Shown piece after piece: positions 1 to 57,333 of a stretch of DNA of 64,000 nucleotides. A model generated the notes under the pieces. It was given only the letters and a program-made list of their open reading frames with translations. It was not told the DNA's origin and did not search any database. The translations under genes were made by a program, and so were the position numbers. How positions within the stretch are numbered: the first letter of the stretch is position 1; each line of letters opens with the position of its first letter. The stretch spans positions 1-64,000 of IMG/VR virus record IMGVR_UViG_3300029268_000006; one strand, 5' to 3'. This DNA comes from a virus.

Positions 1-1
1 T

Positions 2-181
2 TCAGGAACTAGTGGGTCATCAAATACGTCAGGAACCAGTGGAAGTTCAGGAACTAGTGGGTCATCAAACACGTCAGGAACCAGTGGAAGTTCAGGAACT
101 AGTGGGTCATCAAAAACGTCAGGAACCAGTGGAAGTTCAGGAACCAGTGGGTCATCAAAAACGTCAGGAACCAGTGGAAAT
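2..181 (+). repeat. About 4 tandem 45-nt coding repeats (Ser/Gly/Thr linker)
   Basis: TCAGGAACTAGTGGGTCATCAAAnACGTCAGGAACCAGTGGAAGT repeated with few substitutions. Confidence 0.9.
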
Positions 182-1483
182 TCAGGGACCAGTGGAAGTT
201 CTGGTACAAATGGAACATCAGGAATTAGTGGAATTAATGGAACAACAAGTGGAACATCTGTTGAAGCATTGTGGAGTGGATCCACAACAGGAAATATATG
301 GAATTTAAACAATTTAAATGTTGGTATAGGAACAGCAGTACCACAGAATAAATTTCATGTTAAAGCTGATACTGGTGCAAATGCTTTAGTTCGTTTTGAA
401 GCATATCAATCAACACCAACTACATCATTTACATTTTATCACGCTAGGGGGACTATGGCATCACCACAATCAATGCTTAAAGATGATAGTATTGGTGGGT
501 TTGGATTTAGAGGATGTATAGATACTAGTGGAACATTTTCAAGTGGTGGTAGGGGTAATATAGTTTGTAAAGCATCTGAGGACTGGACAACATCAGCAAA
601 TGGAACATATTTTAGTTTTCACACAACATCTTCTGGGACAACTACAAATACTGAAAGAATGCGTTTAACAAGTGAAGGGATGTTAGGTATAGGTACAACA
701 AATGAAATAACAAATCCACTTACAGTATATGGACCAAGAGCTGGAGCCATTCCAAATATTCCGTTAAAATTTGTTAGAAATGTTACAACTACATCAGGAT
801 TAAATTCATCAATGATAGGTGTATCAAATACAAACGGTGATATGACGGATGGTTTTGGTGTGGGTTTATTGTTTGCCATAGAAGATAATCTTGGTGTTGA
901 AAATTATATTGCAAAATTGGGATTTTCACGTGATGGTGAGGATAATTCTGGTAAATATGAATTTCAAACATATAATAATGGAGTTAATACTACAAAAATG
1001 GTTATTAAAAAAAATGGATTAGTCGGTATAGGTACAACAGAACCAAGTCAATTATTAGTATTATCTGGTGGTACTATTCAAATTGCAAATGGAAATCAAG
1101 GAACAAATAAAATATTAACATCTAATTCCACTGGTACTGGTAATTGGTCTTCTGTTTTAGAAGATATAAAATTTGAATTTAGAGATGTTGATAATACACC
1201 ACAATCATACGTTTTAGATTTATATGCATATTATTCTTATAATGTATCTGGTATTACAGTTGAAGGTGATCAAGGGACATCCACTTTTAATATAGTAAAA
1301 TCTGGGACTAATATAATTGGTTTAACAAGTTTAACTGCAACATCTACACTGCAACATTTTTATTCAAGTACAGCAAAATCCACTTCTAATGTTAGTGTTG
1401 GTAATGAAATTGTATTGGATATAACAGGTGTATCTGGGACACCAAGAGTTATAAGAGGAAAATTAATGATTATTAGAACATAA
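2..1483 (+). CDS. Tail fibre-like virion protein, 5' end outside window
   Basis: The frame of ORF 269..1483 is open back to base 2 (SGTSGSSNTSGTSGS repeats). Repeated 'VGIGT' motifs are typical of phage tail-fibre beta-solenoid segments. Confidence 0.65.
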   Translation, partial: SGTSGSSNTSGTSGSSGTSGSSNTSGTSGSSGTSGSSKTSGTSGSSGTSGSSKTSGTSGNSGTSGSSGTNGTSGISGINGTTSGTSVEALWSGSTTGNIWNLNNLNVGIGTAVPQNKFHVKADTGANALVRFEAYQSTPTTSFTFYHARGTMASPQSMLKDDSIGGFGFRGCIDTSGTFSSGGRGNIVCKASEDWTTSANGTYFSFHTTSSGTTTNTERMRLTSEGMLGIGTTNEITNPLTVYGPRAGAIPNIPLKFVRNVTTTSGLNSSMIGVSNTNGDMTDGFGVGLLFAIEDNLGVENYIAKLGFSRDGEDNSGKYEFQTYNNGVNTTKMVIKKNGLVGIGTTEPSQLLVLSGGTIQIANGNQGTNKILTSNSTGTGNWSSVLEDIKFEFRDVDNTPQSYVLDLYAYYSYNVSGITVEGDQGTSTFNIVKSGTNIIGLTSLTATSTLQHFYSSTAKSTSNVSVGNEIVLDITGVSGTPRVIRGKLMIIRT

Positions 1484-5953: not shown

Positions 5954-5998
5954 TTAATTTTTCAAATAATTTTCCAATTGTTCAACAGTCCAAATAGT
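5954..5998 (-). pseudogene. Orphan copy of the DNA ligase 3' end (TIWTVEQLENYLKN*)
   Basis: Encodes the same 9 aa (TIWTVEQLE) as ligase 8235-8261, with synonymous codon differences. Confidence 0.8.
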
Positions 5999-6540
5999 TA
6001 AAAACCCCTGACAGCACGAATATAGTTGTAGACGTTCTTAGCGTAGTTGGTCTGATCCCCATTGGTGAAACCCTGGCCCCACGCGTCGTAGGAAGAGGTC
6101 TCCGAGGAACTCCAGTAGTAGTAGTAGGCAACGAAACCACCAACACCCGTTTTATGTAATAAATAAATTTTATTTAGTTCATCTTTTGTCGGTAATCTCC
6201 AATCGTCAAACCCACCACCTCTATAATCAGAACATAATTTATTAGCATTTTCCCAGTTGGTACAACCCAAATCAACATCTGACACAATTAATTTTTGTTC
6301 AATTAGTAACTTATTTGATTCGATATTTAAATTTAAAACATCGTTATCTATTATCCAATTATTATATAATTCATAATCTCGTAATATTTTATCTTCAAAG
6401 AAATCACAATTCCAAGATAAATCATATATAATTTCACCATTCTTATTTTCATAAACATCTTTTATAAATGGATAAGATGGCCACATTGAGTCATTAGACT
6501 TTTTTAATTTTAATTTTGTTCCGATTTCTAATTTTTTCAT
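5998..6540 (-). CDS. DUF1566/Lcl-type C-type-lectin-fold protein, DGR target
   Basis: WENANKLC..Y.GGGFDDWRLPTKDEL and YWSSSE...AW...F..G.......K.....IRAVR motifs. Confidence 0.85.
   Translation of the reverse strand: MKKLEIGTKLKLKKSNDSMWPSYPFIKDVYENKNGEIIYDLSWNCDFFEDKILRDYELYNNWIIDNDVLNLNIESNKLLIEQKLIVSDVDLGCTNWENANKLCSDYRGGGFDDWRLPTKDELNKIYLLHKTGVGGFVAYYYYWSSSETSSYDAWGQGFTNGDQTNYAKNVYNYIRAVRGF
6001..6150 (-). other. DGR variable region (VR)
   Basis: About 52% GC by my count (78/150) in a very AT-rich genome. 22 of 50 codons end in C and none in A, as expected for codons derived from template AAC codons. Confidence 0.8.
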
Positions 6541-6594
6541 TTTTTAATTTTAATTTTAAATATAATAATTTTATTTGTTTAAAAAAAATTTATT

Positions 6595-6780
6595 TTAAAA
6601 ATCTTTTTCGATATTTAATCCTTTTTTTTCCATATCATCTCTTATCAATTTTTCAATATATTTTGATCTATTGTTAATATCTTCATTTTTGATGTGTTCA
6701 TCAAAAATCTTTAATAATTTATCAGTAATGGAAAATGAAAATTTTCTTTTCTTTTTTTCTTCTGGTTTCTTTTTATTCAT
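6595..6780 (-). CDS. Ribbon-helix-helix (CopG-like) DNA-binding protein
   Basis: KFSFSITDKLLKIFDE...NRSKYIEKLIRDDM pattern. Confidence 0.7.
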   Translation of the reverse strand: MNKKKPEEKKKRKFSFSITDKLLKIFDEHIKNEDINNRSKYIEKLIRDDMEKKGLNIEKDF

Positions 6781-6853
6781 AAAATTTTATTACTAATTTA
6801 TCACTTTTTGACCTTTATACTTTAATATATACTAAAAAAGAATAATAGTTTAT

Positions 6854-7012
6854 ATGAAAAGAAAAAAAGAAAAAGTGGTTGTTTCCATTTCAATTGATAA
6901 AAAACTTTGTTTATACATGGATGAATTGTTTTCTAATAAATCAAAATATCTCGAATGGTTAATATACGAAGATTTATCGAAAATAAAAAATTTAGAAAAA
7001 ATAATTATTTAA
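6854..7012 (+). CDS. Second RHH protein (52 aa, below ORF-track cutoff)
   Basis: Manual translation: MKRKKEKVVVSISIDKKLCLYMDELFSNKSKYLEWLIYEDLSKIKNLEKIII. Confidence 0.65.
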   Translation: MKRKKEKVVVSISIDKKLCLYMDELFSNKSKYLEWLIYEDLSKIKNLEKIII

Positions 7013-7014
7013 AT

Positions 7015-8223
7015 ATGAAAAAGAGAAAACAAAGAGGTTATTGGACGTATGAAAGATGTAAAGATGTGGCTTTAGAATGTAAGACTAAAAAGGAATTATC
7101 TGATAAATATATAAGTGTTATTGAAGTAATTCGTAAAAATAAATGGTTTGAATTAATATTACATTTTAATGAAGTACAAAAACCAAAAGGTTATTGGACA
7201 TATGATAAATGTAAAGAATCGGCACTTGAATGTAAAACTAAAATTGAAATGATTAAAAAGTATATTAGTGCTTATAACATTATTCGTAAAAATAAATGGT
7301 TTGAATTAATAGAACATTTTATAGAATTACGAAAATCCAAAGGTTATTGGACATATGATAAATGTAAAGATGTTGCTTTGAAATGTAAAAATAATAAAGA
7401 ATTAAGAAATTTTGATAGTGTATTTAATTCAATTCGTAGAAATAAATGGTTTGATTTGACATATCATTTTATCGAATTACAGAAACATCATGGTTACTGG
7501 ACATATGAAAAATGTAAAATGGAATCTTTAAAATTTAATAGTAGAATTGAAATGCGTGAAAATACATCTGCTTATTATGCAATTTGTAAAAATAAATGGT
7601 TTGATTTGTTTGAACACATGGTAAATAATTCTAATACTAGAAAAAGACTTATATATGTTTATGAATTTAGTGATAACTGTTGTTATGTTGGTTTAACAGG
7701 GAATATAAAAGTGAGAAATAATAGACATTTAAAAATAGAAAAAACAAGACCAATATTTAAACATATGTCCAAAACAAATTTAATTCCCAATCTTAATATA
7801 AAGACGGATTATTTACCAATTGAAGATGCTAAAAAATTAGAAAATGATTTTATTAATATGTATCGAAAAAACGGATGGATTGTTTTAAATAAAATAAAAG
7901 GCGGGACATTAGGTGGTAATATAGTAAAATGGAATAAAGAATCTTGTGAAAAAGATGTTAAAAAATATAATAAATTGTCAACTTTTAGAAAAAATTCTCA
8001 AAGTTCTTATTATTCTATATTAAAAAATGGTTGGTTTGATGAAATTTGTAGTCATTTAAAAAGATCTAAAGTTAAGAATGGATATTGGAATAATAAAGAA
8101 TTATGTAAGTTTGAATCTGAAAAATATAAAAATAAAACGACTTTTTTTAAAAAATGTGGATCGGCTTATGAACATTCTAGAAAAAATGGTTGGTTAAATG
8201 AATTTTTTCCAAAAAATTATTAA
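7015..8223 (+). CDS. GIY-YIG homing endonuclease with tandem GYWTYEKC repeats
   Basis: LIYVYEF...CYVGLT...R..RH motif and repeated ~43-aa modules. ATG 7015 directly follows the RHH stop (track start 6955). Confidence 0.8.
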   Translation: MKKRKQRGYWTYERCKDVALECKTKKELSDKYISVIEVIRKNKWFELILHFNEVQKPKGYWTYDKCKESALECKTKIEMIKKYISAYNIIRKNKWFELIEHFIELRKSKGYWTYDKCKDVALKCKNNKELRNFDSVFNSIRRNKWFDLTYHFIELQKHHGYWTYEKCKMESLKFNSRIEMRENTSAYYAICKNKWFDLFEHMVNNSNTRKRLIYVYEFSDNCCYVGLTGNIKVRNNRHLKIEKTRPIFKHMSKTNLIPNLNIKTDYLPIEDAKKLENDFINMYRKNGWIVLNKIKGGTLGGNIVKWNKESCEKDVKKYNKLSTFRKNSQSSYYSILKNGWFDEICSHLKRSKVKNGYWNNKELCKFESEKYKNKTTFFKKCGSAYEHSRKNGWLNEFFPKNY

Positions 8224-10178
8224 CTTAAGAATGATTCAAGTTGTTCGACTGTCCAAATAGTCATTCCGTATTCTAAAGCTTTCTTTTCTTTTGAAGAACC
8301 ACTACCGATGGATTTCATAATCAAATTTGTGCAGTTTCTACTTATTGAATCCACTACTTTTCCACTTTCTTGTTGAATTTTTTGCTCTAAATCCTTACGC
8401 CTTATACCCGTAAAAATGAAAGTCATACCAATACATTTACTTCCAGTTGGTGTAAAAGGTTCATCTTTTTTTATTGTGATTGGAAGTGTAGACAACCATT
8501 TAAAGAAACGATCATAATTACTACAATAAATAATAGCCGATGTTTCTTCGAAACCTTTTATTTTTTTAACGTCAGTAACTGAAGGTTTTTGTGTGAAGTG
8601 TTCTAACAGAATAAGTTTTTTACTTCCTAAACTGAAACCACTTGTTGGGTCAGTAAAGAATCCTGATGCGTGTTGTAATTTTGATAACGTAATTCCATCA
8701 ATTTTAGAATGAATATCATCGTAGATATTTGATGATTTAGTATCGCCCATTCGTTCTAATTTTCTGAAATCATCAATTGACATATCAATAATTTTTTCAA
8801 TTGTATCATATCCTGAATTGAATAACTGTCGAAAAGTGGTCTCCCTCACATTTTCAACACCAAGAATATCAAAAAAAGACGTAATCTGTTTTATTATTTT
8901 GTCAGAGCAATTATTATTAGTACACATTAAATGTGTGTTGGTATCATTCCAAATTAATGTAGTGTTACAACAAGGACAATTTGATGGTAATGATAATTGT
9001 TTATCTGATTTTTTTACAACGTCAATTATAAGAGGTATAACACTTCCACTTCTACAAATTCTTACTCGTGTTCCAGTACCACCTAACTTAATAACATTTT
9101 TTATATTATTACAAGTTACATTACTAACCAATGCACCATCAAGCATAATTGGTTCTACTTGGGCAACTGGTATTAGGAAACCCATTTTCGATATTTCAAA
9201 TGTAATATTAAGAATTGTGGTTTCTTTCACTTCTTCAAAGGATGCTTTATAAGCTCTCGCATAACCCGGATTCATCACAAGTGGGTTATCTTTGGTTGAT
9301 CTTTCTGAATTAATACTTTTTCTTAAATCTTTATCATTTACTTCAATAACAAGTCCATCAATTTCGAAATTTTTATTCCATTCATCAAAAACACATCTTA
9401 AATATTCAGCATTCAAATTATCAATAGTTTGAAGAATATAAGGGACTTGAAAGTTGTCATCATTGAAATATTGATTTAAAATATCAAGTTGTACACTTTT
9501 ATCCAAATCCATACCACAATGAAAACTATATCTCATATAAACAACATCATTAAATGCTGGTTTATTTTCTTTTTTATATTTGTTGAAAAGGCCACCAACA
9601 CGATTTCTACCATTATCAAATCCATTTTCATCGCCCAAAGCTTTTTTTGAATGTTTTTTCAGAAACACATCTTTTGTTATAAGTGCTTCACCAGTGGTAT
9701 AAATAAATGGTGCGTATTGATATGATTGTAAAAAAGATTCAATTTTATCTTTTGAATATTTTTCCATCACATCCTTAAAATGTGGATCAGAATTTTGACC
9801 AATTGCACCATCACCTCTTGTCCAAGCTTTCGATGCTTTAACATCATTTAAAATAGAAAGACCGTCATATTTTGGTGTAATACAAAGAACGGTATCGAGA
9901 GGAATCCCCTTTTTAATCATCCAAGCTTTTAATTCTTCATAAGATTTAACCTTATTCATTGATGCCATAATCAATGGAAGATTTTCTTTACGATCATCAT
10001 CTGGTGGCGTTTCACCAACTTTTGTAACTCTTTTATTATCAGGATCTAAATCGTCTAATTCTTCAATGTGTGAATCATAAACAGAATCAGGGACGATTTG
10101 TTTACCTTCAAATCTGTAAGAATAATTCCATTGATCTAAAAGGATTTCTAATTCTTTAATTCTTTCGGTGTTTTCCAT
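8220..10178 (-). CDS. ligA: NAD-dependent DNA ligase
   Basis: KYDG adenylation motif, IDGLVI, zinc finger CPCC, C-terminal BRCT (FIFTG). Start placed at M10 because a promoter box overlaps the track start. Confidence 0.95.
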   Translation of the reverse strand: MENTERIKELEILLDQWNYSYRFEGKQIVPDSVYDSHIEELDDLDPDNKRVTKVGETPPDDDRKENLPLIMASMNKVKSYEELKAWMIKKGIPLDTVLCITPKYDGLSILNDVKASKAWTRGDGAIGQNSDPHFKDVMEKYSKDKIESFLQSYQYAPFIYTTGEALITKDVFLKKHSKKALGDENGFDNGRNRVGGLFNKYKKENKPAFNDVVYMRYSFHCGMDLDKSVQLDILNQYFNDDNFQVPYILQTIDNLNAEYLRCVFDEWNKNFEIDGLVIEVNDKDLRKSINSERSTKDNPLVMNPGYARAYKASFEEVKETTILNITFEISKMGFLIPVAQVEPIMLDGALVSNVTCNNIKNVIKLGGTGTRVRICRSGSVIPLIIDVVKKSDKQLSLPSNCPCCNTTLIWNDTNTHLMCTNNNCSDKIIKQITSFFDILGVENVRETTFRQLFNSGYDTIEKIIDMSIDDFRKLERMGDTKSSNIYDDIHSKIDGITLSKLQHASGFFTDPTSGFSLGSKKLILLEHFTQKPSVTDVKKIKGFEETSAIIYCSNYDRFFKWLSTLPITIKKDEPFTPTGSKCIGMTFIFTGIRRKDLEQKIQQESGKVVDSISRNCTNLIMKSIGSGSSKEKKALEYGMTIWTVEQLESFLS

Positions 10179-10202
10179 TTTATATTGTTTTGATTTATGA
10201 TA

Positions 10203-10210
10203 CAAAGATA
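10203..10210 (-). promoter_or_regulatory. Bacteroidota-type -7 box TAnnTTTG (TATCTTTG)
   Basis: The same consensus occurs at 12749-12756, 14432-14439, 32951-32958 (minus) and 59163-59170, 59227-59234 (plus), each just upstream of a gene start. Confidence 0.7.
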
Positions 10211-34644: not shown

Positions 34645-36252
34645 TTAGATTTCAACTGCTTCAATCTTGTGAATCAAAGCCTGACGATCTTGTTCCAACA
34701 TTTTCATTAAATCGAAAACTTTATCTGAAAATCCAGCCAAAGCGTAAACTTTGTTTTCTGGGAATTGTAAAGTTCCGTAACCTTTAAGGTCAATAGAATA
34801 GATATGAGACTGACATTTATACTTTTTACAGTATTCTTTGAAAGTTGTTGTTGGTGCGTGATATCCAACCCAACCTTGTTCATCAGATAAAATAATTATT
34901 CTATCGTAAGCTTTATTGGCTTTTTGAAAGATACTATGGAAATTAGTACCAGCACAAGCGAACTTGTAAATGTTTGTAATAGTCATCAAACTATCAGATG
35001 GGTTATAGTTTTTGTATTCTGCATGATCATCAAATCTCATCAAATCACAACCATTACGTTTTGCGATAGCGGCTGCGAATTGTGCACCAGCTTCAGCACA
35101 ACTAATTGTACTTTTTGCTACTTTATTTGATGTCATAGAACCAGATGTATCTAAAACAACCAATGTTTCACCATCAAATTTCGGAATATTATTAAGTGAA
35201 ATTTCAGTAGCTTCGTTGATGGCAGTTAGAACTTTTCTGTATTTAGAATCCGAAGTACCAAGACTTTGTAATTCTTTGTAAGCTACAAGAAATCTGAATG
35301 GTAAAACCAATGATTTCTTAATTAACTTTTCATCAGTTAAAAGTTCACAAGCGACATCAATCATTTCCGGTGCTTGTTCAACAATGTTTCTTAGGTTACG
35401 AAGTAAAGCGAAGTAACCGATTTTACGTTCACTAAGAAGCTTTGTCCAAGCGTCTTTTTTAAGGTCTTGTTTTTCATCTTCATTGTTAGCTATTTGACCA
35501 GCTTTTGACAATTCAGATTCCCAAGTGTCTTTACTACGAAGTAAATCAATTACAAGTGCTTCAAGAGCGTGAATTTTGATAGTTCCACCTTCTTGTGATT
35601 TAACCCAATTAAGTTTCTTTTCAATTTCTTTCTTATCTTCAGCTTTCTTTTTCAAAGATAATTTCTTGTTAAGTATGTCAATGTATTCTTGACGATTAAC
35701 AGTTACCAAAAATTTATCACCCTGTGTTGGTACTGGGTGTACCAAGTTGGCAATATCAACTAATTTGAAGTCTTTACCTTCACCTCTCCATTTTCCAAGT
35801 TGGTATGCATCGAATCTTGAAATAGCTTCAGCGAAGCCTTTTTTCATCGAATTGGTAATTTTGTTGTCTTTCTTTTTCATGTAGTAAGCCAAGATTTCCA
35901 TCATATCATCCGGTCTACGGACAATTTTGTTATAGAAATTTTTTGCCCAAGGTAAGTTGGACAAATATTTAGCCAATTCAGCAGCTGTAATATGTGATAT
36001 GGATCTCATACCAAATTCATTACGGGCATAAAGTGCAGATTTAGCTACAAAATCCGGTTGTGTCTTACCAATAAGATCAATCAATCTGTTATTGGTTTGT
36101 TCTTCAGTTTCGTAAAAAGAATTCTGTACAAAGGATGTTAACAAAATAGAAACTAATTCTAATTTATTTGATTCTTTGTAGGCTTCACCACCTGCTAAGT
36201 TAACAGTTTTTTCTGCTTTGTAAGCAACTTTTTTTTCATTGAATTTTGACAT
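34645..36252 (-). CDS. rsr: Ro60 / TROVE-domain RNA-binding protein with vWA domain
   Basis: NLAGGEAY, ALYARNEFGMRS, FDAYQLGKWR, ALLRNLRNI, LPFRF and VVLDTSGSM (MIDAS). Confidence 0.95.
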   Translation of the reverse strand: MSKFNEKKVAYKAEKTVNLAGGEAYKESNKLELVSILLTSFVQNSFYETEEQTNNRLIDLIGKTQPDFVAKSALYARNEFGMRSISHITAAELAKYLSNLPWAKNFYNKIVRRPDDMMEILAYYMKKKDNKITNSMKKGFAEAISRFDAYQLGKWRGEGKDFKLVDIANLVHPVPTQGDKFLVTVNRQEYIDILNKKLSLKKKAEDKKEIEKKLNWVKSQEGGTIKIHALEALVIDLLRSKDTWESELSKAGQIANNEDEKQDLKKDAWTKLLSERKIGYFALLRNLRNIVEQAPEMIDVACELLTDEKLIKKSLVLPFRFLVAYKELQSLGTSDSKYRKVLTAINEATEISLNNIPKFDGETLVVLDTSGSMTSNKVAKSTISCAEAGAQFAAAIAKRNGCDLMRFDDHAEYKNYNPSDSLMTITNIYKFACAGTNFHSIFQKANKAYDRIIILSDEQGWVGYHAPTTTFKEYCKKYKCQSHIYSIDLKGYGTLQFPENKVYALAGFSDKVFDLMKMLEQDRQALIHKIEAVEI

Positions 36253-36955: not shown

Positions 36956-39382
36956 TTAAATATTATATTTTTTTGGCCAAAATTGTTTTTTTTGTGAATT
37001 TGGCCAAAATAATGGATTTTTATTTTCATCATCATTTTTTCTAAATGGGTCAGGTTCTCTCCAAGGATTTCGTTTAAATATTTCGTTTGAATCATCTTCT
37101 CTCCAAGGATTATTTGGTTTAATAGAATTTATTTGTGACATCACATCAACTTTATTTATGAATTGTTTTCTAGCTAATCTGAATGATTTGTAGTTTATTG
37201 TATTTTCAAGTGGTGCAGTTTCTAAGAAATTTTTAACAATTTCTTTTTCTATATCTGTTGCATTAAAGTCAATATAAGTGTCAATTATATTTTTCCAATC
37301 AATATGACTATAAATAGTTGCCAAGTTTATAATTGACATCACACAGTCATCAGTACCACTTTGAGATTTATATGTCACTTCACCATTTGCCAATTCTTTT
37401 TTGGAGAATGAACTTAATTCTATTATGGTTCCACTGTGATGTAATACCATCGCGTCTTTTTTGATACAATCTTGAAAATCTTTTATCATTAGTTTCTTGC
37501 CTTTTTCTCCACTTTTCACAAGGAAACCAACAGTTAGGTAAGTATCAGTTTCATTTTGTTTGTAACGAACAAATACCGAATCACCATAATTGTTGATATC
37601 ATTAAATACATGTTTCATATTATCTAGAAGTCTATCACCCAGATTTTTATTTTTTTCAAGAACTATTTTTACTTTTTCAGAATCGAATAATTCAAATCCT
37701 ATTAAATATAATATATGTGATATTTCATTTGCGTTATAAATATTATTTTGAAAAACACCAATTTGTTCCAATTTAAATAAATCATATTTGCTTTCATACA
37801 TTAGTCTTTTTCTATTTATAATATCTTTATCTTTCATCATTAATCTAAAAATATTTATCACAGTGTAATTTTGTGCAAGTCCTTCACCCATGTCAATTCC
37901 TATAAATATATTATAATTTTTTACTTGTCTAATATCAAATAGATCCGGTCTATTTTTTATCCATTTTAAATCTGTATAAGGAAATTTTAATTTATTTTCA
38001 AATTGTGGTATTTCTTTATATTCAAATGGTGTTTCATTATTAGTTAAACTTTCAAATATAATACTATCAAATAATAAATTTTGATCTGTTATAAATTGAA
38101 GTCCGTATTCTTGTTTGAATTTATCTTCACCACCTATAAGATTTGTTTCTTCTTCTTCCCAATTAGAAATATATGCAATTTCAGTAAAAGGAATTTCACT
38201 TTCAAATTCCATATTGTCATCTCTTGTTTCTAAATTTGTTGCAATTCTTAATGAACGGATACTGGAAATATCAGATTGAAGTGATGGGGTTATTTCATCA
38301 TCTTCGTAAAATTTAATATGATGTATAGCTATACCATCAAGTACCTTATCATAAAGTTTATAACCCAATTCATTTCTCAAATAATTCAAAACATAACCTT
38401 CAGTTAATCCGTGTTTTTTGAGTTTGTCGTCAATGAATTTTATTTTAGTATCCCTCCTACCTTTTATTTGATACCAATAAACTTTAAGTGCTTTATATGG
38501 GTTTTTATGTGGATCACCTTCTGGTAATTCGGCATCTCTTAATAATTCAAAGAATAAATTTCTACCGTCCGGGGTTGATGTAATAATAATTTTTGAATTT
38601 GTAATTGATGATACAGTTGGTACAACGGATGAATAATAAGCTCTAATTATATTATCTGGAATTTTAGCAAACTCATCGAGATATAGTAAATCTATTGTAA
38701 AACCAATGGCCGGTTCTTTGGATCTATTTTGTGTTTGTATTCTACTACCATTTTCAAAAGATAGTGATCTTTCGTTCCAGTTGTTTATACCGGCCTTTAA
38801 GTAGAATGGTAATAATTTATATATGTCTTTTATTTTTCTTATAATTTCTTTAACAGTATTAGATACGTTAGCAACAACCATAACCCCTTTATCTTTATTA
38901 AATAAAACAGTCCACAACATTACAATTGCAGCACTAACTGTATTTAAACTTAAAATATCATTTGTATAATAACTATGTTCATTGGATTGAATTGATAAAT
39001 CGAACATAGAAACTTTATAGTTTTGTTTAATAATAGATTTTATTTTTGATGGACCCCTTTTGGTTAAAACTATATCATCGTGTGTTAAATCTTTAACAAA
39101 TTTAATTATATGATTTTCACAAAAAACACCATGAACATCCGCACAATTTAATTTAATACCATTTTCCAATTTTAGTGTATAAAATGTATATGGTTGTGTT
39201 AAATTAATTTCTTCAATTGGAACAAAACCATAATCTGTTTCGACTAATAAATTTTCTAATGGTAAAAAATTTAATATTTTTTTTGTTTCATCATTTTCAT
39301 CTAAATCTATGTTTCTATATTCATAATTTTCTAATTTTTCAATTAAAAAATATATAATATTTCTTAATATTTTCTTAAACAT
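36956..39382 (-). CDS. terL: Large terminase C-terminal part with N-terminal C-intein
   Basis: Walker B LYLDEFA, ITSTPDG and RuvC IGIDMGEG; first 147 aa are intein-like, ending ILSLN/T. Confidence 0.9.
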   Translation of the reverse strand: MFKKILRNIIYFLIEKLENYEYRNIDLDENDETKKILNFLPLENLLVETDYGFVPIEEINLTQPYTFYTLKLENGIKLNCADVHGVFCENHIIKFVKDLTHDDIVLTKRGPSKIKSIIKQNYKVSMFDLSIQSNEHSYYTNDILSLNTVSAAIVMLWTVLFNKDKGVMVVANVSNTVKEIIRKIKDIYKLLPFYLKAGINNWNERSLSFENGSRIQTQNRSKEPAIGFTIDLLYLDEFAKIPDNIIRAYYSSVVPTVSSITNSKIIITSTPDGRNLFFELLRDAELPEGDPHKNPYKALKVYWYQIKGRRDTKIKFIDDKLKKHGLTEGYVLNYLRNELGYKLYDKVLDGIAIHHIKFYEDDEITPSLQSDISSIRSLRIATNLETRDDNMEFESEIPFTEIAYISNWEEEETNLIGGEDKFKQEYGLQFITDQNLLFDSIIFESLTNNETPFEYKEIPQFENKLKFPYTDLKWIKNRPDLFDIRQVKNYNIFIGIDMGEGLAQNYTVINIFRLMMKDKDIINRKRLMYESKYDLFKLEQIGVFQNNIYNANEISHILYLIGFELFDSEKVKIVLEKNKNLGDRLLDNMKHVFNDINNYGDSVFVRYKQNETDTYLTVGFLVKSGEKGKKLMIKDFQDCIKKDAMVLHHSGTIIELSSFSKKELANGEVTYKSQSGTDDCVMSIINLATIYSHIDWKNIIDTYIDFNATDIEKEIVKNFLETAPLENTINYKSFRLARKQFINKVDVMSQINSIKPNNPWREDDSNEIFKRNPWREPDPFRKNDDENKNPLFWPNSQKKQFWPKKYNI
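38942..39382 (-). mobile_element. Split intein C-fragment (TerL), 147 aa
   Basis: Contains block B (CADVH) and blocks F/G (MFDLS...YYTNDILSLN); +1 residue is Thr. Confidence 0.85.
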
Positions 39383-55569: not shown

Positions 55570-55680
55570 ATGAAAGAGATAAAAATTAAAAAAATAAACA
55601 TTAAACAAAATGATGATGTATATGATTTAAAAATAGAAAATAATCATAACTTTTTTGCAAATAAAATATTAGTTCACAAC
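55570..55680 (+). mobile_element. Split intein C-fragment (NrdJ), 37 aa
   Basis: Terminal HN; +1 is the Cys of NPCGE. Confidence 0.9.
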
Positions 55681-57333
55681 TGTGGTGAGATTCCATTATG
55701 TCCAAATGATTCTTGCCGCTTATTGGCAATAAATTTATATAATTTTGTAAAAAATCCATTTACTAAAGATCCAATTTTTGATTGGGAATGGTTTAAAAAA
55801 TGTGTTTTGTATGCAGAAAGATTCATGGATGATATTATAGATTTGGAAATTGAAAAAATTGAAAAAATTATTGAAAAAATAAAATTAGATCCAGAACCAG
55901 AATATATGAAAAAAGTGGAAATGGAAGTTTGGAATAAAATTATGAATATGACTAAAAAAGGTCGTAGAACTGGATTGGGTGTTACAGCAGAGGGAGATAT
56001 GTTAGCTGGTATGGGTTTAATTTATGGAACCCCGGAAGCAACTGAATTTTCAACTAAAATTCATAAAACACTCGCAATCGAAGCTTATCGTTCATCCTGT
56101 ATTTTAGCTAAAGAAAGAGGTACATTTCCTATATATGATTACAATAAAGAAATAAATAATCCATTTATTAGCAGATTAAAAAATGATGATCCAGAATTGG
56201 ATGAAATGTTAAAAAAATATGGAAGAAGAAATATATCATTACTTACAATTGCACCAACCGGCAGTGTGAGTATTTTAACACAAACGACATCAGGTGTCGA
56301 ACCTGTTTTTCTTGTGTCTTATAAAAGAAGAAGAAAAATAAATCCATCAGATAAAGATATGATGGTGAATTTTGTTGACGATGAGGGAATTAAATGGCAA
56401 GAATATAATGTATTTCATCATAAATTTGAAGTTTGGTTGAAAAACAATGGATATAATATCGATGAAGTGAAACTTATGAAGGAAGAAGATTTGAAAGAAA
56501 TAATCAAATTATCACCTTACTATAAAGCAACATCAAATGATGTTGATTGGGTTGAAAAAATTAAAATGCAAGGTAGTATTCAAAAATATGTCGATCATTC
56601 TATTTCAGTAACAGTAAATTTACCGAAAACTGCAACAGAAGAAATGGTTTCCCAAGTGTATGAAACCGGATGGAGTAGTGGGTGTAAAGGCGTTACTGTA
56701 TATAGAGATGGTTCAAGACAGGGTGTTATTATTTCTAATGAAAGTAAAGATAAAAAAACATCAACAAATAATATTCCAAAAAGGCCAGTAAAATTACAAT
56801 GTGATGTACTTAGATTTGTAAGTAGAGGTAATAAATGGGTTGGTTTTGTTGGTTTAATGGAAGATACTGATGAAACCTATCCATATGAAATGTTTACTGG
56901 ATTGGCTGATGATTTTGTTATTCCTAATTATGTCGAAAAGGGTTTTATTAGAAAGGAAAAAATAAAAGATAGTGAAAACAATTTAATTTCCAGATACGAT
57001 TTTATTTACCATGATAAAGATGGATTTGAAGTGACAATGCAGGGTCTTAATCGTGCATTTGATAGAGAATATTGGAATATTGGTAAATTATTAAGTGGTT
57101 TACTTCGTCATAGAATGCATTTTCCATCAATTATAAAAATCATAGAATCTTTAAAATTAGACGGTGATACTTTGGGTACTTGGAAAAAAGGTGTTATCAG
57201 AATTTTAAAAAGATATATCAAAGAAGGTGAGATGGAAACTGATGAAGAATGTCCAATTTGTAAATCTAAAAATTTGGTTCATAAAGAAGGTTGTGTTTCA
57301 TGTTTGGACTGTCAATGGTCGAGATGTTCTTGA
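55570..57333 (+). CDS. nrdJ: Class II RNR C-terminal part beginning with C-intein
   Basis: 37-aa IntC (VYDL...NFFANKILVHN), then CGEIPL, IAPTGS and C-terminal zinc ribbon. Confidence 0.95.
   Translation: MKEIKIKKINIKQNDDVYDLKIENNHNFFANKILVHNCGEIPLCPNDSCRLLAINLYNFVKNPFTKDPIFDWEWFKKCVLYAERFMDDIIDLEIEKIEKIIEKIKLDPEPEYMKKVEMEVWNKIMNMTKKGRRTGLGVTAEGDMLAGMGLIYGTPEATEFSTKIHKTLAIEAYRSSCILAKERGTFPIYDYNKEINNPFISRLKNDDPELDEMLKKYGRRNISLLTIAPTGSVSILTQTTSGVEPVFLVSYKRRRKINPSDKDMMVNFVDDEGIKWQEYNVFHHKFEVWLKNNGYNIDEVKLMKEEDLKEIIKLSPYYKATSNDVDWVEKIKMQGSIQKYVDHSISVTVNLPKTATEEMVSQVYETGWSSGCKGVTVYRDGSRQGVIISNESKDKKTSTNNIPKRPVKLQCDVLRFVSRGNKWVGFVGLMEDTDETYPYEMFTGLADDFVIPNYVEKGFIRKEKIKDSENNLISRYDFIYHDKDGFEVTMQGLNRAFDREYWNIGKLLSGLLRHRMHFPSIIKIIESLKLDGDTLGTWKKGVIRILKRYIKEGEMETDEECPICKSKNLVHKEGCVSCLDCQWSRCS

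Follow-up and report, generated by a model that had tools for sequence, protein, structure and literature searches.

The target gene and its variable region

The DNA analysed here (the window) comprises the first 64 kb (64,000 nucleotides) of the IMG/VR virus record IMGVR_UViG_3300029268_000006, a linear contig of 132,134 bp with 26% GC that CheckV rates as ~19% complete. Near the start of the window lies a small gene for a protein with a lectin-like C-terminal domain, the last gene of a cassette that appears to have entered the 3' end of a DNA-ligase gene (Table 1). Our analysis concerns the final stretch of this gene, which we hold with high confidence to be a variable region (VR) written by a diversity-generating retroelement (DGR). 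Because the contig encodes a T4-type large terminase, a ribonucleotide reductase and a Ro60/TROVE protein, and because the standard code reads well, we identify it as a fragment of a very large tailed phage. The public runs that contain its DNA are lake-water metagenomes. An alternative genetic code was considered as an explanation and ruled out, as translation table 11 already gives 90% coding.

The VR stands out by composition. The GC fraction at 6000-6149 is 0.52, against 0.15-0.30 on either side, and the last 50 codons of the target gene are 52% GC compared with 24% for the gene body. At third codon positions the step is steeper, with a GC fraction of 0.66 in the last 50 codons and 0.17 in the remainder of the gene. 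The third bases of these 50 codons are 22 C, 17 T, 11 G and no A, an exact recount that reproduces what the preliminary description had reported for the last 150 nt (52% GC, 22 of 50 codons ending in C, none in A). To set these values against chance we took all 36,367 in-frame 50-codon windows from every open reading frame (ORF) of at least 100 aa in the 132-kb contig. Codons ending in A average 20.1 per window; 6001..6150 on the minus strand is the sole window with zero, and no other locus has two or fewer. The A-free tail is far beyond chance and is unique within the 132-kb contig.

The VR spans residues ~139-173 of the protein, and its core consists of ~22 variable codons of the form NNC or NNT amid the fixed scaffold codons GCG TGG, CAG, TTC, GGG, CAG and AAG. 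Upstream, the bases of a GC-rich 5' extension are retained in a truncated paralogue at genome positions 104,752-104,795. Downstream, the VR closes on a segment resembling an initiation of mutagenic homing (IMH) site, and at that position several templates have GCA GTT CGA.

The C-terminal end of the 180-aa protein reads ...AYYYYWSSSETSSYDAWGQGFTNGDQTNYAKNVYNYIRAVRGF. Residues 94-178 match the Lcl_C (DUF1566) profile PF07603 at 50.5 bits against a cut-off of 34.9 (E 3e-13), covering profile positions 22-117 and leaving out the first ~21; a paralogue, P0004, has IGSK.HGG, the motif at the head of the Lcl_C domain in relatives. An AlphaFold model built with ten homologues reaches a predicted local distance difference test score (pLDDT) of 77-94 at residues 80-180 and is poor over the N-terminal ~80 residues, with pLDDT below 50 at 1-24 and 44-78. 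Searched with Foldseek, the model has as its top PDB match 8q4e, the C-terminal domain of Legionella pneumophila Lcl (E 1e-8, 35% identity), with many C-type lectins ranking below it, including snaclecs and the C-type-lectin-like domains of natural killer cell receptors. The exact protein occurs on three public contigs. It is present as a single allele in a 15-billion-protein collection and is alone in its 90% identity cluster.

Related variable regions and their templates

Relatives were sought by exact-pattern searches, as in all our scans of sequence collections. Viral contigs yielded 80 loci, and most Lcl_C genes there are without the VR signature. The signature is present in six AT-rich phage contigs (L013, L019, L035, L037, L039 and L040), whose tails are equal in length to that of the window gene and have a common scaffold with it: TGG AGT TC., GCG TGG, CAG, TTC, GG., CAG, AAG, CGT GC. 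GT..GG. Between the scaffold codons, variation is confined to the first two bases of NNC or NNT codons. At L039 9451-11024 (the same as L113 and L169), five tandem Lcl_C genes of ~115 aa are near-identical upstream and differ only at the NN of NNC/NNT. We found no reverse transcriptase (RT) in the 88-kb L039 record, nor in related phage fragments and the records with VR arrays. In the related phage contig L019 (10717-11393), three tRNA genes (Glu, Gln, Leu) lie directly 3' of the VR gene.

With N at the variable sites, the scaffold pattern matched more than 120 stretches in metagenome contigs. About ten of the stretches listed carry A at all 18 tested variable bases and are therefore template repeats (TRs). 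The TR reads ...TAC TAC TGG AGT TCT ACG GAG AAC GAT AAC AAT AAC GCG TGG AAA CAG AAT TTC AAC AAT GGT AAT and runs onward as CAG AAC AAC AAC AAT AAG AAC AAC ACA AAC AAT GTG CGT GCA GTT CGA GCT TTT.... The template that the preliminary description had predicted from the VR is identical to these real TRs at 56 of 63 bases. In eight TR-bearing contigs a DGR RT adjoins the TR (E ~1e-70, motifs IGNLTSQ and YVDD, RVT_1 match); in the five TR contigs inspected, an Avd gene of 114-119 aa stands just ahead of the TR; and in at least three contigs holding a VR as well as a TR, the VR precedes the TR by ~660 nt. All the recovered TRs sit in cellular-looking Bacteroidota cassettes, in which the targets have signal peptides and the neighbours are MFS, TPR and endonuclease I genes. 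Among 126 distinct VRs, 48 have two or fewer mismatches to a sampled TR at bases other than template A, and a second group has 6-10.

Comparison with these templates supports the assignment of the window VR to a DGR. Over its 117-nt core, the VR has 84 matches to the nearest TR (L211/L122), with 23 mismatches at template A and 10 elsewhere. Differences thus affect 23 of 47 template adenines and 10 of 70 other bases (odds ratio 5.75, Fisher p 6e-5). The description of the locus as a small DGR target gene with a clear VR is borne out by the Lcl_C domain, the A-free tail and this match to the family of VRs and TRs. The ten non-A differences (TCC for TCT, GGG for GGT, GTC AGG GGT for GTT CGG GCT, and so on) are mostly toward G or C. 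As they run against the AT bias of the genome, we read them as the mark of a distinct, unsampled template sub-lineage (TCC TCG, GGG, GTC AGG GGT) rather than of decay. Phage VRs in general, the window VR included, have 10-15 non-A mismatches to the best TR.

Traces of this putative sub-lineage are found in phages and bacteria. The closest protein relatives (P0002, P0003 and P0005) have the same terminal ...VRAVRGF. One of these is a sister gene with two alleles, P0003 and P0016, that have the same first 111 aa but disagree at 15 of the final 30, the population signature of a DGR. In viral contigs the sub-lineage pattern TGGAGTTCCWC..CGTNCWGTCAGG occurs in three records only, L001/L002 and L313, and all of these VRs are eroded. 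L001 and L002 are two records of one gene sequence, and the sister phage they come from has a terminase with 77-78% identity to that of the window phage; the L001 contig has just one further gene in common with the window contig. Across 185,579 species genomes, the same pattern retrieved VR-bearing DUF1566 genes in metagenome-assembled genomes (MAGs) of Bacteroidota, and additionally two chance matches in Dehalococcoidia. Given the common template scaffold and these sub-lineage VR genes in Bacteroidota MAGs, Bacteroidota are the likely host group. One Bacteroidales MAG contig, JAQICB010000028.1 (L323), encodes a secreted DUF1566 protein with a VR at 861-968 and a TR-like all-AAC copy at 1550-1657. 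This copy is 690 nt downstream of the VR, with 22 A and 7 non-A mismatches between the two, and the ORF that follows does not encode a reverse transcriptase.

The retroelement that would serve the window VR was sought on the contig and beyond it. The preliminary description had noted no RT or template nearby, and this extends to the whole 132-kb contig: neither blastn (word size 7) nor a mismatch scan tolerant of template A found a template repeat, the whole record gave 0 RVT_1 candidates, and no DGR RT was detected by phmmer with two DGR RTs or by hmmsearch --max with a family RT profile (best E 1.9), under conditions in which the positive controls of the RT search worked. A family Avd profile run against the six-frame translation of the contig found no Avd (best E 1.2). 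With the contig representing ~19% of the genome, the absence of TR, RT and Avd holds for 132 kb and not for the whole genome. Viral contigs contained no template matching the A-free stretch GGTGTTGGTGGTTTCGTTGCCT or a degenerate pattern allowing the VR base or A at each position, and no match to an inferred L039-type template. Metagenome contigs gave no template with the window-specific scaffold, and no TR of the window sub-lineage was found in IMG/VR or in the 185,579 species genomes. A paralogue region at 104.7 kb was examined as a candidate template and rejected: its identity to the VR ends after TCCTCGGA, and the later mismatches are not restricted to A.

The surrounding cassette and the flank of the variable region

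The end of the ligase gene is present twice, bracketing ~2.26 kb. This arrangement leads us to interpret the interval as an insertion into the ligase 3' end by a mobile cassette of the kind that replaces the gene end it displaces. The displaced end, 5954-5998 on the minus strand, reads ACT ATT TGG ACT GTT GAA CAA TTG GAA AAT TAT TTG AAA AAT TAA and begins within the target gene's stop codon. The second copy, the last 14 codons at 8220-8261 (TIWTVEQLESFLS and stop), is the working C-terminus of the ligase. Between them the cassette carries the target gene, a 61-aa repressor-like gene, a 422-aa GIY-YIG-like repeat protein and the recoded replacement ligase end. The GIY-YIG assignment of the 422-aa ORF comes from reading its motifs and not from a Pfam match; paralogues of this ORF lie at two other places in the genome, 115-116 kb and 126-127 kb, and it is the probable mobility gene of the cassette. 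Among the loci compared, no relative was found with an uninterrupted ligase, that is, an empty cassette site.

Table 1. Features at the target locus and at the adjoining contig end, in window coordinates.
Feature	Position	Strand	Basis
Contig end: tandem Ser/Gly/Thr-coding repeat (1-300) running into tail-fibre-like gene (269-1483)	1..1483	+	PHROG tail-fibre matches, E 6e-9 and 6e-7
Displaced original ligase 3' end (TIWTVEQLENYLKN and stop)	5954..5998	-	Translation and alignment to the ligase C-terminus
Target gene, 180 aa	5998..6540	-	Intact ORF; N-terminal ~90 aa without known fold, C-terminal lectin-like domain
Inserted cassette (putative), ~2.26 kb	5999..8261		Ligase end duplicated at 5954-5998 and 8220-8261
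IMH-like VR 3' end (CGT GCT GTC AGG GGT TTT)	6001..6018	-	Homologous to the invariant GTG CGT GCT GTT CGG GCT TTT of family VRs
VR core, 117 nt (TAC TAC TGG AGT TCC TCG GAG ... AGG GGT)	6004..6120	-	Codon-for-codon alignment with family VRs and TRs
Lcl_C / DUF1566 domain, C-type-lectin fold	6007..6261	-	Residues 94-178, Pfam PF07603
GC-rich 5' VR extension (ACG GGT GTT GGT GGT TTC GTT GCC TAC TAC), including part of the YYYY run	6121..6150	-	GC step
61-aa repressor-like protein gene, within the cassette	6595..6780	-	PHROG 4738 'transcriptional repressor', E 5e-6
GIY-YIG-like endonuclease gene, ~45-aa repeats	6955..8223	+	PHROG 20046, E 2e-44 (function-unknown family)
DNA-ligase gene	8220..10205	-	ORF and duplicated end; putative ligase from reading of the sequence

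With the cassette junction in the stop codon of the target gene, the VR abuts foreign DNA. In the family, the 3' flank of the VR is an AT-rich array of ATTTA[ATC][CT] units, sometimes with a hairpin such as ACCGCGTAAGCGGT. Counted on the metagenome loci L119-L238, two or more units are present in 83 of 121 distinct VR flanks (69%), compared with 3 of 604 control 90-mers, and at least one unit in 105 of 121 (87%). The flank of the window VR has zero such units and no hairpin, its minimum free energy being -0.9 kcal/mol (z +1.8), with 199 of 200 shuffles folding at least as well. The heptamer ACTATTT is common to the family flank TTTTTAACTATTTA... and to the ligase sequence ATG ACT ATT TGG at the junction, and may be the microhomology used by the insertion event. 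Past their own 3' ends the templates, unlike the VR flanks, run into CAAACTTTCTT... and a GGCGGCA-TTTTT-GCCGTC hairpin.

Beyond the window, the contig has three broken VR pieces on its minus strand. The gene for P0004 (108 aa) is ~90% identical to the target gene at the DNA level up to TCC TCG GA and is then truncated (WSSSEIIF and stop), leaving the VR piece at 104,752-104,795. A collapsed VR at 104,567-104,609 consists of two ends only, TGGAGTTCTTCTGAGTACAAT joined to TTGTGCTGTTCGGAGTTTTTAA; at 102,109-102,153 there is a bare VR tail that has the flank motif in full. In the last two relics the ATTTAwy flank, gone from the intact VR, is still present.

The target gene is oriented toward the contig start, which is 6 kb away and falls within the tandem repeat of the tail-fibre-like gene. 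This repeat, at window positions 1-300, is built of ~45-nt units (TCAGGAACTAGTGGGTCATCAAA.ACG TCAGGAACCAGTGGAAGT) encoding Ser, Gly and Thr, and probably caused the assembly to break here. The TR-RT of the window VR could be just past the contig end, far off or nonexistent. Elsewhere in the window, the phage encodes a Ro60/TROVE plus von Willebrand factor A protein at 34645-36252 (minus strand). Weak matches to Intein_splicing, under the Pfam cut-off, fall in the large terminase (36956-39382, minus strand) and the ribonucleotide reductase (55570-57333, plus strand), and both proteins may possibly contain inteins.

Origin, present state and significance

We propose that the last ~140-165 nt of the target gene were overwritten by complementary DNA (cDNA) copied from a template repeat, with the adenines randomised. 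The template would be of the family TAC TGG AGT TC..CG GAG AAC.AT AAC AA. AAC GCG TGG AA. CAG AAT TTC AAC AAT GG. AA. CAG, continuing AAC AAC AAC AAT AAG ... CGT GC. GT..GG. Such an origin would explain the foreign GC content, the NNC/NNT codons and the lack of third-position A in a genome of 26% GC. The target gene would then have arrived in the ligase 3' end as the terminal gene of a ~2.26-kb GIY-YIG-type cassette; with the junction in the stop codon, the AT-rich flank motif of most family VRs would be gone and the VR stranded. That the VR is indeed stranded, frozen in one state, we regard as the likeliest reading, at about even odds. It is favoured by the position of the gene at the cassette end and the missing conserved 3' flank, and by the VR relics, the eroded VRs of the sub-lineage, the lack of a matching template and the single allele. 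The preliminary description had instead called the gene a remote (trans) target. We treat that as a candidate reading, as the contig is a fragment ending 6 kb downstream of the gene, and the cassette-end position and lost flank favour a stranded copy.

Several points weigh against stranding. Some 19% of the genome is in hand, the contig end is 6 kb downstream of the gene, and an intact TR-RT may lie off the contig. The VR is crisp, with zero third-position A and every scaffold codon intact, and so fits recent or ongoing homing. Arrays of five copies, as in L039, are clearly diversified without any GC hairpin, and the need for the missing flank in this family is argued from its conservation and by analogy with the phage BPP-1, in which the 24 bp immediately downstream of the VR are needed for efficient retrohoming (Guo et al. 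2011, PMC3240598). None of the collections scanned contained the exact cognate TR, the nearest TR having 10 non-A mismatches. Finally, a complete 554-kb phage, G018, serves Lcl_C targets 137-348 kb from its RT.

The main rival reading, which we hold as possible, if tentative, is that the gene is an active remote target whose own Avd-TR-RT lies in the unassembled ~80% of the genome, or just past the contig end, and still rewrites a VR with an IMH-like end. In its favour, the contig is linear, 19% complete and broken in a repeat 6 kb downstream of the gene. None of the 50 third positions is A, the ORF is intact, as is the 3' end CGT GCT GTC AGG GGT TTT, and the sister-gene alleles vary in the VR only. 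The precedent is G018 (the L285 record, IMGVR_UViG_3300045988_166570; loci L305-L308), a TAG-recoded phage genome of 553,716 bp that is 100% complete. One TR/RT near 355 kb stands with four Lcl_C VRs at 6.9, 8.1, 218 and 529 kb, and 16 of 19, 18 of 20, 22 of 29 and 22 of 30 of their respective mismatches fall at template A. Against active diversification of the window VR, a ligase remnant without a hairpin stands where 69-87% of family VRs have the flank motif, 132 kb of contig are without TR, RT or Avd, the same genome holds broken VR relics, and a single allele runs across public assemblies. The sub-lineage TR was not found in IMG/VR or the 185,579 species genomes, and in a published survey phage-associated targets are almost never more than 50 kb away from the RT (Wu et al. 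2018, PMC5758913). That survey found remote targets, at more than 100 kb, to be confined to non-phage DGRs and considered them unexpected for phages.

We consider it unlikely that the phage VRs are rewritten in trans during infection, by a chromosomal DGR of the Bacteroidota host with the same template family or by a co-infecting element. The recovered templates of the scaffold family all lie in cellular-looking Bacteroidota cassettes, and a scan of 2.9 million viral contigs returned 8 scaffold stretches and 0 templates. The phage G003 (IMGVR_UViG_3300044644_001125; L056/L065/L078), 327,256 bp and 92% complete, has at least eight small Lcl_C genes with VR-like NNC tails and the common scaffold (for example at 230.4-240.3 and 324.6-325.8 kb), and no RT, Avd or template was found in the 327 kb searched. 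In BPP-1, moreover, avd, TR and brt act in trans from a plasmid, as cited in PMC5758913. These observations are offset by others. The VRs with two or fewer non-A mismatches to sampled cellular TRs are, every one, on cellular contigs, and a host template serving phage VRs was rejected on that ground; the phage VRs, at 10-15 non-A mismatches from the best TR, include none demonstrably served by a known host template. Phage templates may also be unsampled among the metagenome matches listed, and G003 may lack 8% of its genome. A generalised form of the idea, that large aquatic phages carry 'client' VR genes without a retroelement of their own (the window gene, the L039-type arrays, G003) and have them rewritten in trans, seems to us equally improbable; if it were true, the virus would in effect borrow the hypermutation machinery of its host.

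Least probable of all is an origin without a DGR, in which a higher-GC homologue supplied the tail through ordinary recombination or horizontal transfer, or amino-acid selection shaped it: the gene travels in a mobile cassette, homologous tails exist in Bacteroidota genomes of 35-45% GC and the cognate TR was not found in our scans, but amino-acid selection is unable to purge A from synonymous third positions, the composition step falls at the template boundaries of the family, the differences from real templates are concentrated at template adenines (p 6e-5), the paralogues and alleles of relatives vary only at the NN of NNC/NNT, and a transferred patch would itself have been written by a DGR in the donor.

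Set beside known systems, a DGR-written and probably stranded VR finds close parallels. Targets with DUF1566, DUF823 or Fib_succ_major domains form category 'd' of Wu et al. (2018, PMC5758913), with CLec2 VRs and Legionella pneumophila LdtA as prototype, and about half of the DUF1566-class targets are short and domain-only. The window protein is likewise short and domain-only. It has the same Pfam domain, a fold match to Legionella Lcl (8q4e), a VR at the extreme C-terminus ending in VRAVRxF and the AAC/AAT logic of the template. Unlike that class, it lies on DNA without a TR, RT or Avd, resides in a huge phage of 26% GC rather than a bacterial chromosome, lacks a lipoprotein or signal sequence and is flanked by a ligase remnant. 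The aquatic Bacteroidota cassettes with the order target, Avd, TR, RT (L122, L123, L160, L200, L211, L212 and L235) have identical VR scaffold codons, and the window VR matches their TR at 84 of 117 bases, with 23 of the 33 mismatches at template A. These cassettes differ in being cellular, with secreted targets and a retained ATTTAwy flank, often with the ACCGCGTAAGCGGT hairpin. DUF1566-class DGR targets are well known, and the window gene is not new biology; its setting is unusual.

Among phages, BPP-1 has in Mtd a C-type-lectin-fold protein with a C-terminal VR and a GC-richer, invariant IMH-like 3' end, as here. The window protein belongs to the Lcl_C subclass of CLec folds and not to Mtd, the TR and RT of BPP-1 are adjacent to its target, and the 24 bp that BPP-1 needs downstream of the VR correspond in the window to foreign DNA without secondary structure. 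A comparison of 224 jumbo phages reported no FGS-type C-type-lectin domains (PMC7824862). The phage Lcl_C arrays (L039/L035/L013/L019/L037 and G003) resemble the window phage in being AT-rich and large, with small DUF1566-only proteins of the same scaffold family and no RT found. They differ in having tandem, mutually diversified copies with a conserved flank, whereas the window contig has one intact copy plus relics, with the flank lost from the former. Treponema denticola has up to seven remote DGR targets (Wu et al. 2018, PMC5758913), which like the window gene are not beside the TR-RT. The remoteness of the window gene is only a candidate, and the phage precedent is G018.

The protein probably still works as a binding module of fixed specificity. 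Judged by Mtd, LdtA and further variable proteins of the CLec type, the VR would form the ligand-binding surface of the lectin fold. The protein is most plausibly a virion-associated or host-surface adhesin, or an accessory to receptor binding, and a gene with tail-fibre PHROG matches lies 4.5 kb from it. The preliminary description had suggested an intracellular ligand, pointing to the small size of the protein and its lack of a signal peptide. Phage virion proteins carry no signal peptides. Short DUF1566-only targets are common (PMC5758913), the tail-fibre-like gene is close by, and the suggestion finds no support here.

Our analysis has implications for how such genes are found and how they move. 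The compositional signature alone, with no third-position A and a step in GC, located a true VR and led to a predicted template within 7 of 63 bases of real ones, which validates signature-based discovery of targets in fragments without an RT. The case also shows a route by which a VR gene may be separated from its retroelement, namely as cargo in a homing-endonuclease-type cassette, with loss of the downstream recognition flank at the junction. Seen alongside the relics, the RT-less arrays and G018, whose targets lie 137-348 kb from the RT, the case suggests that the classic 'cassette' picture greatly understates how much DGR targets in huge phages are scattered, gained, broken and stranded.

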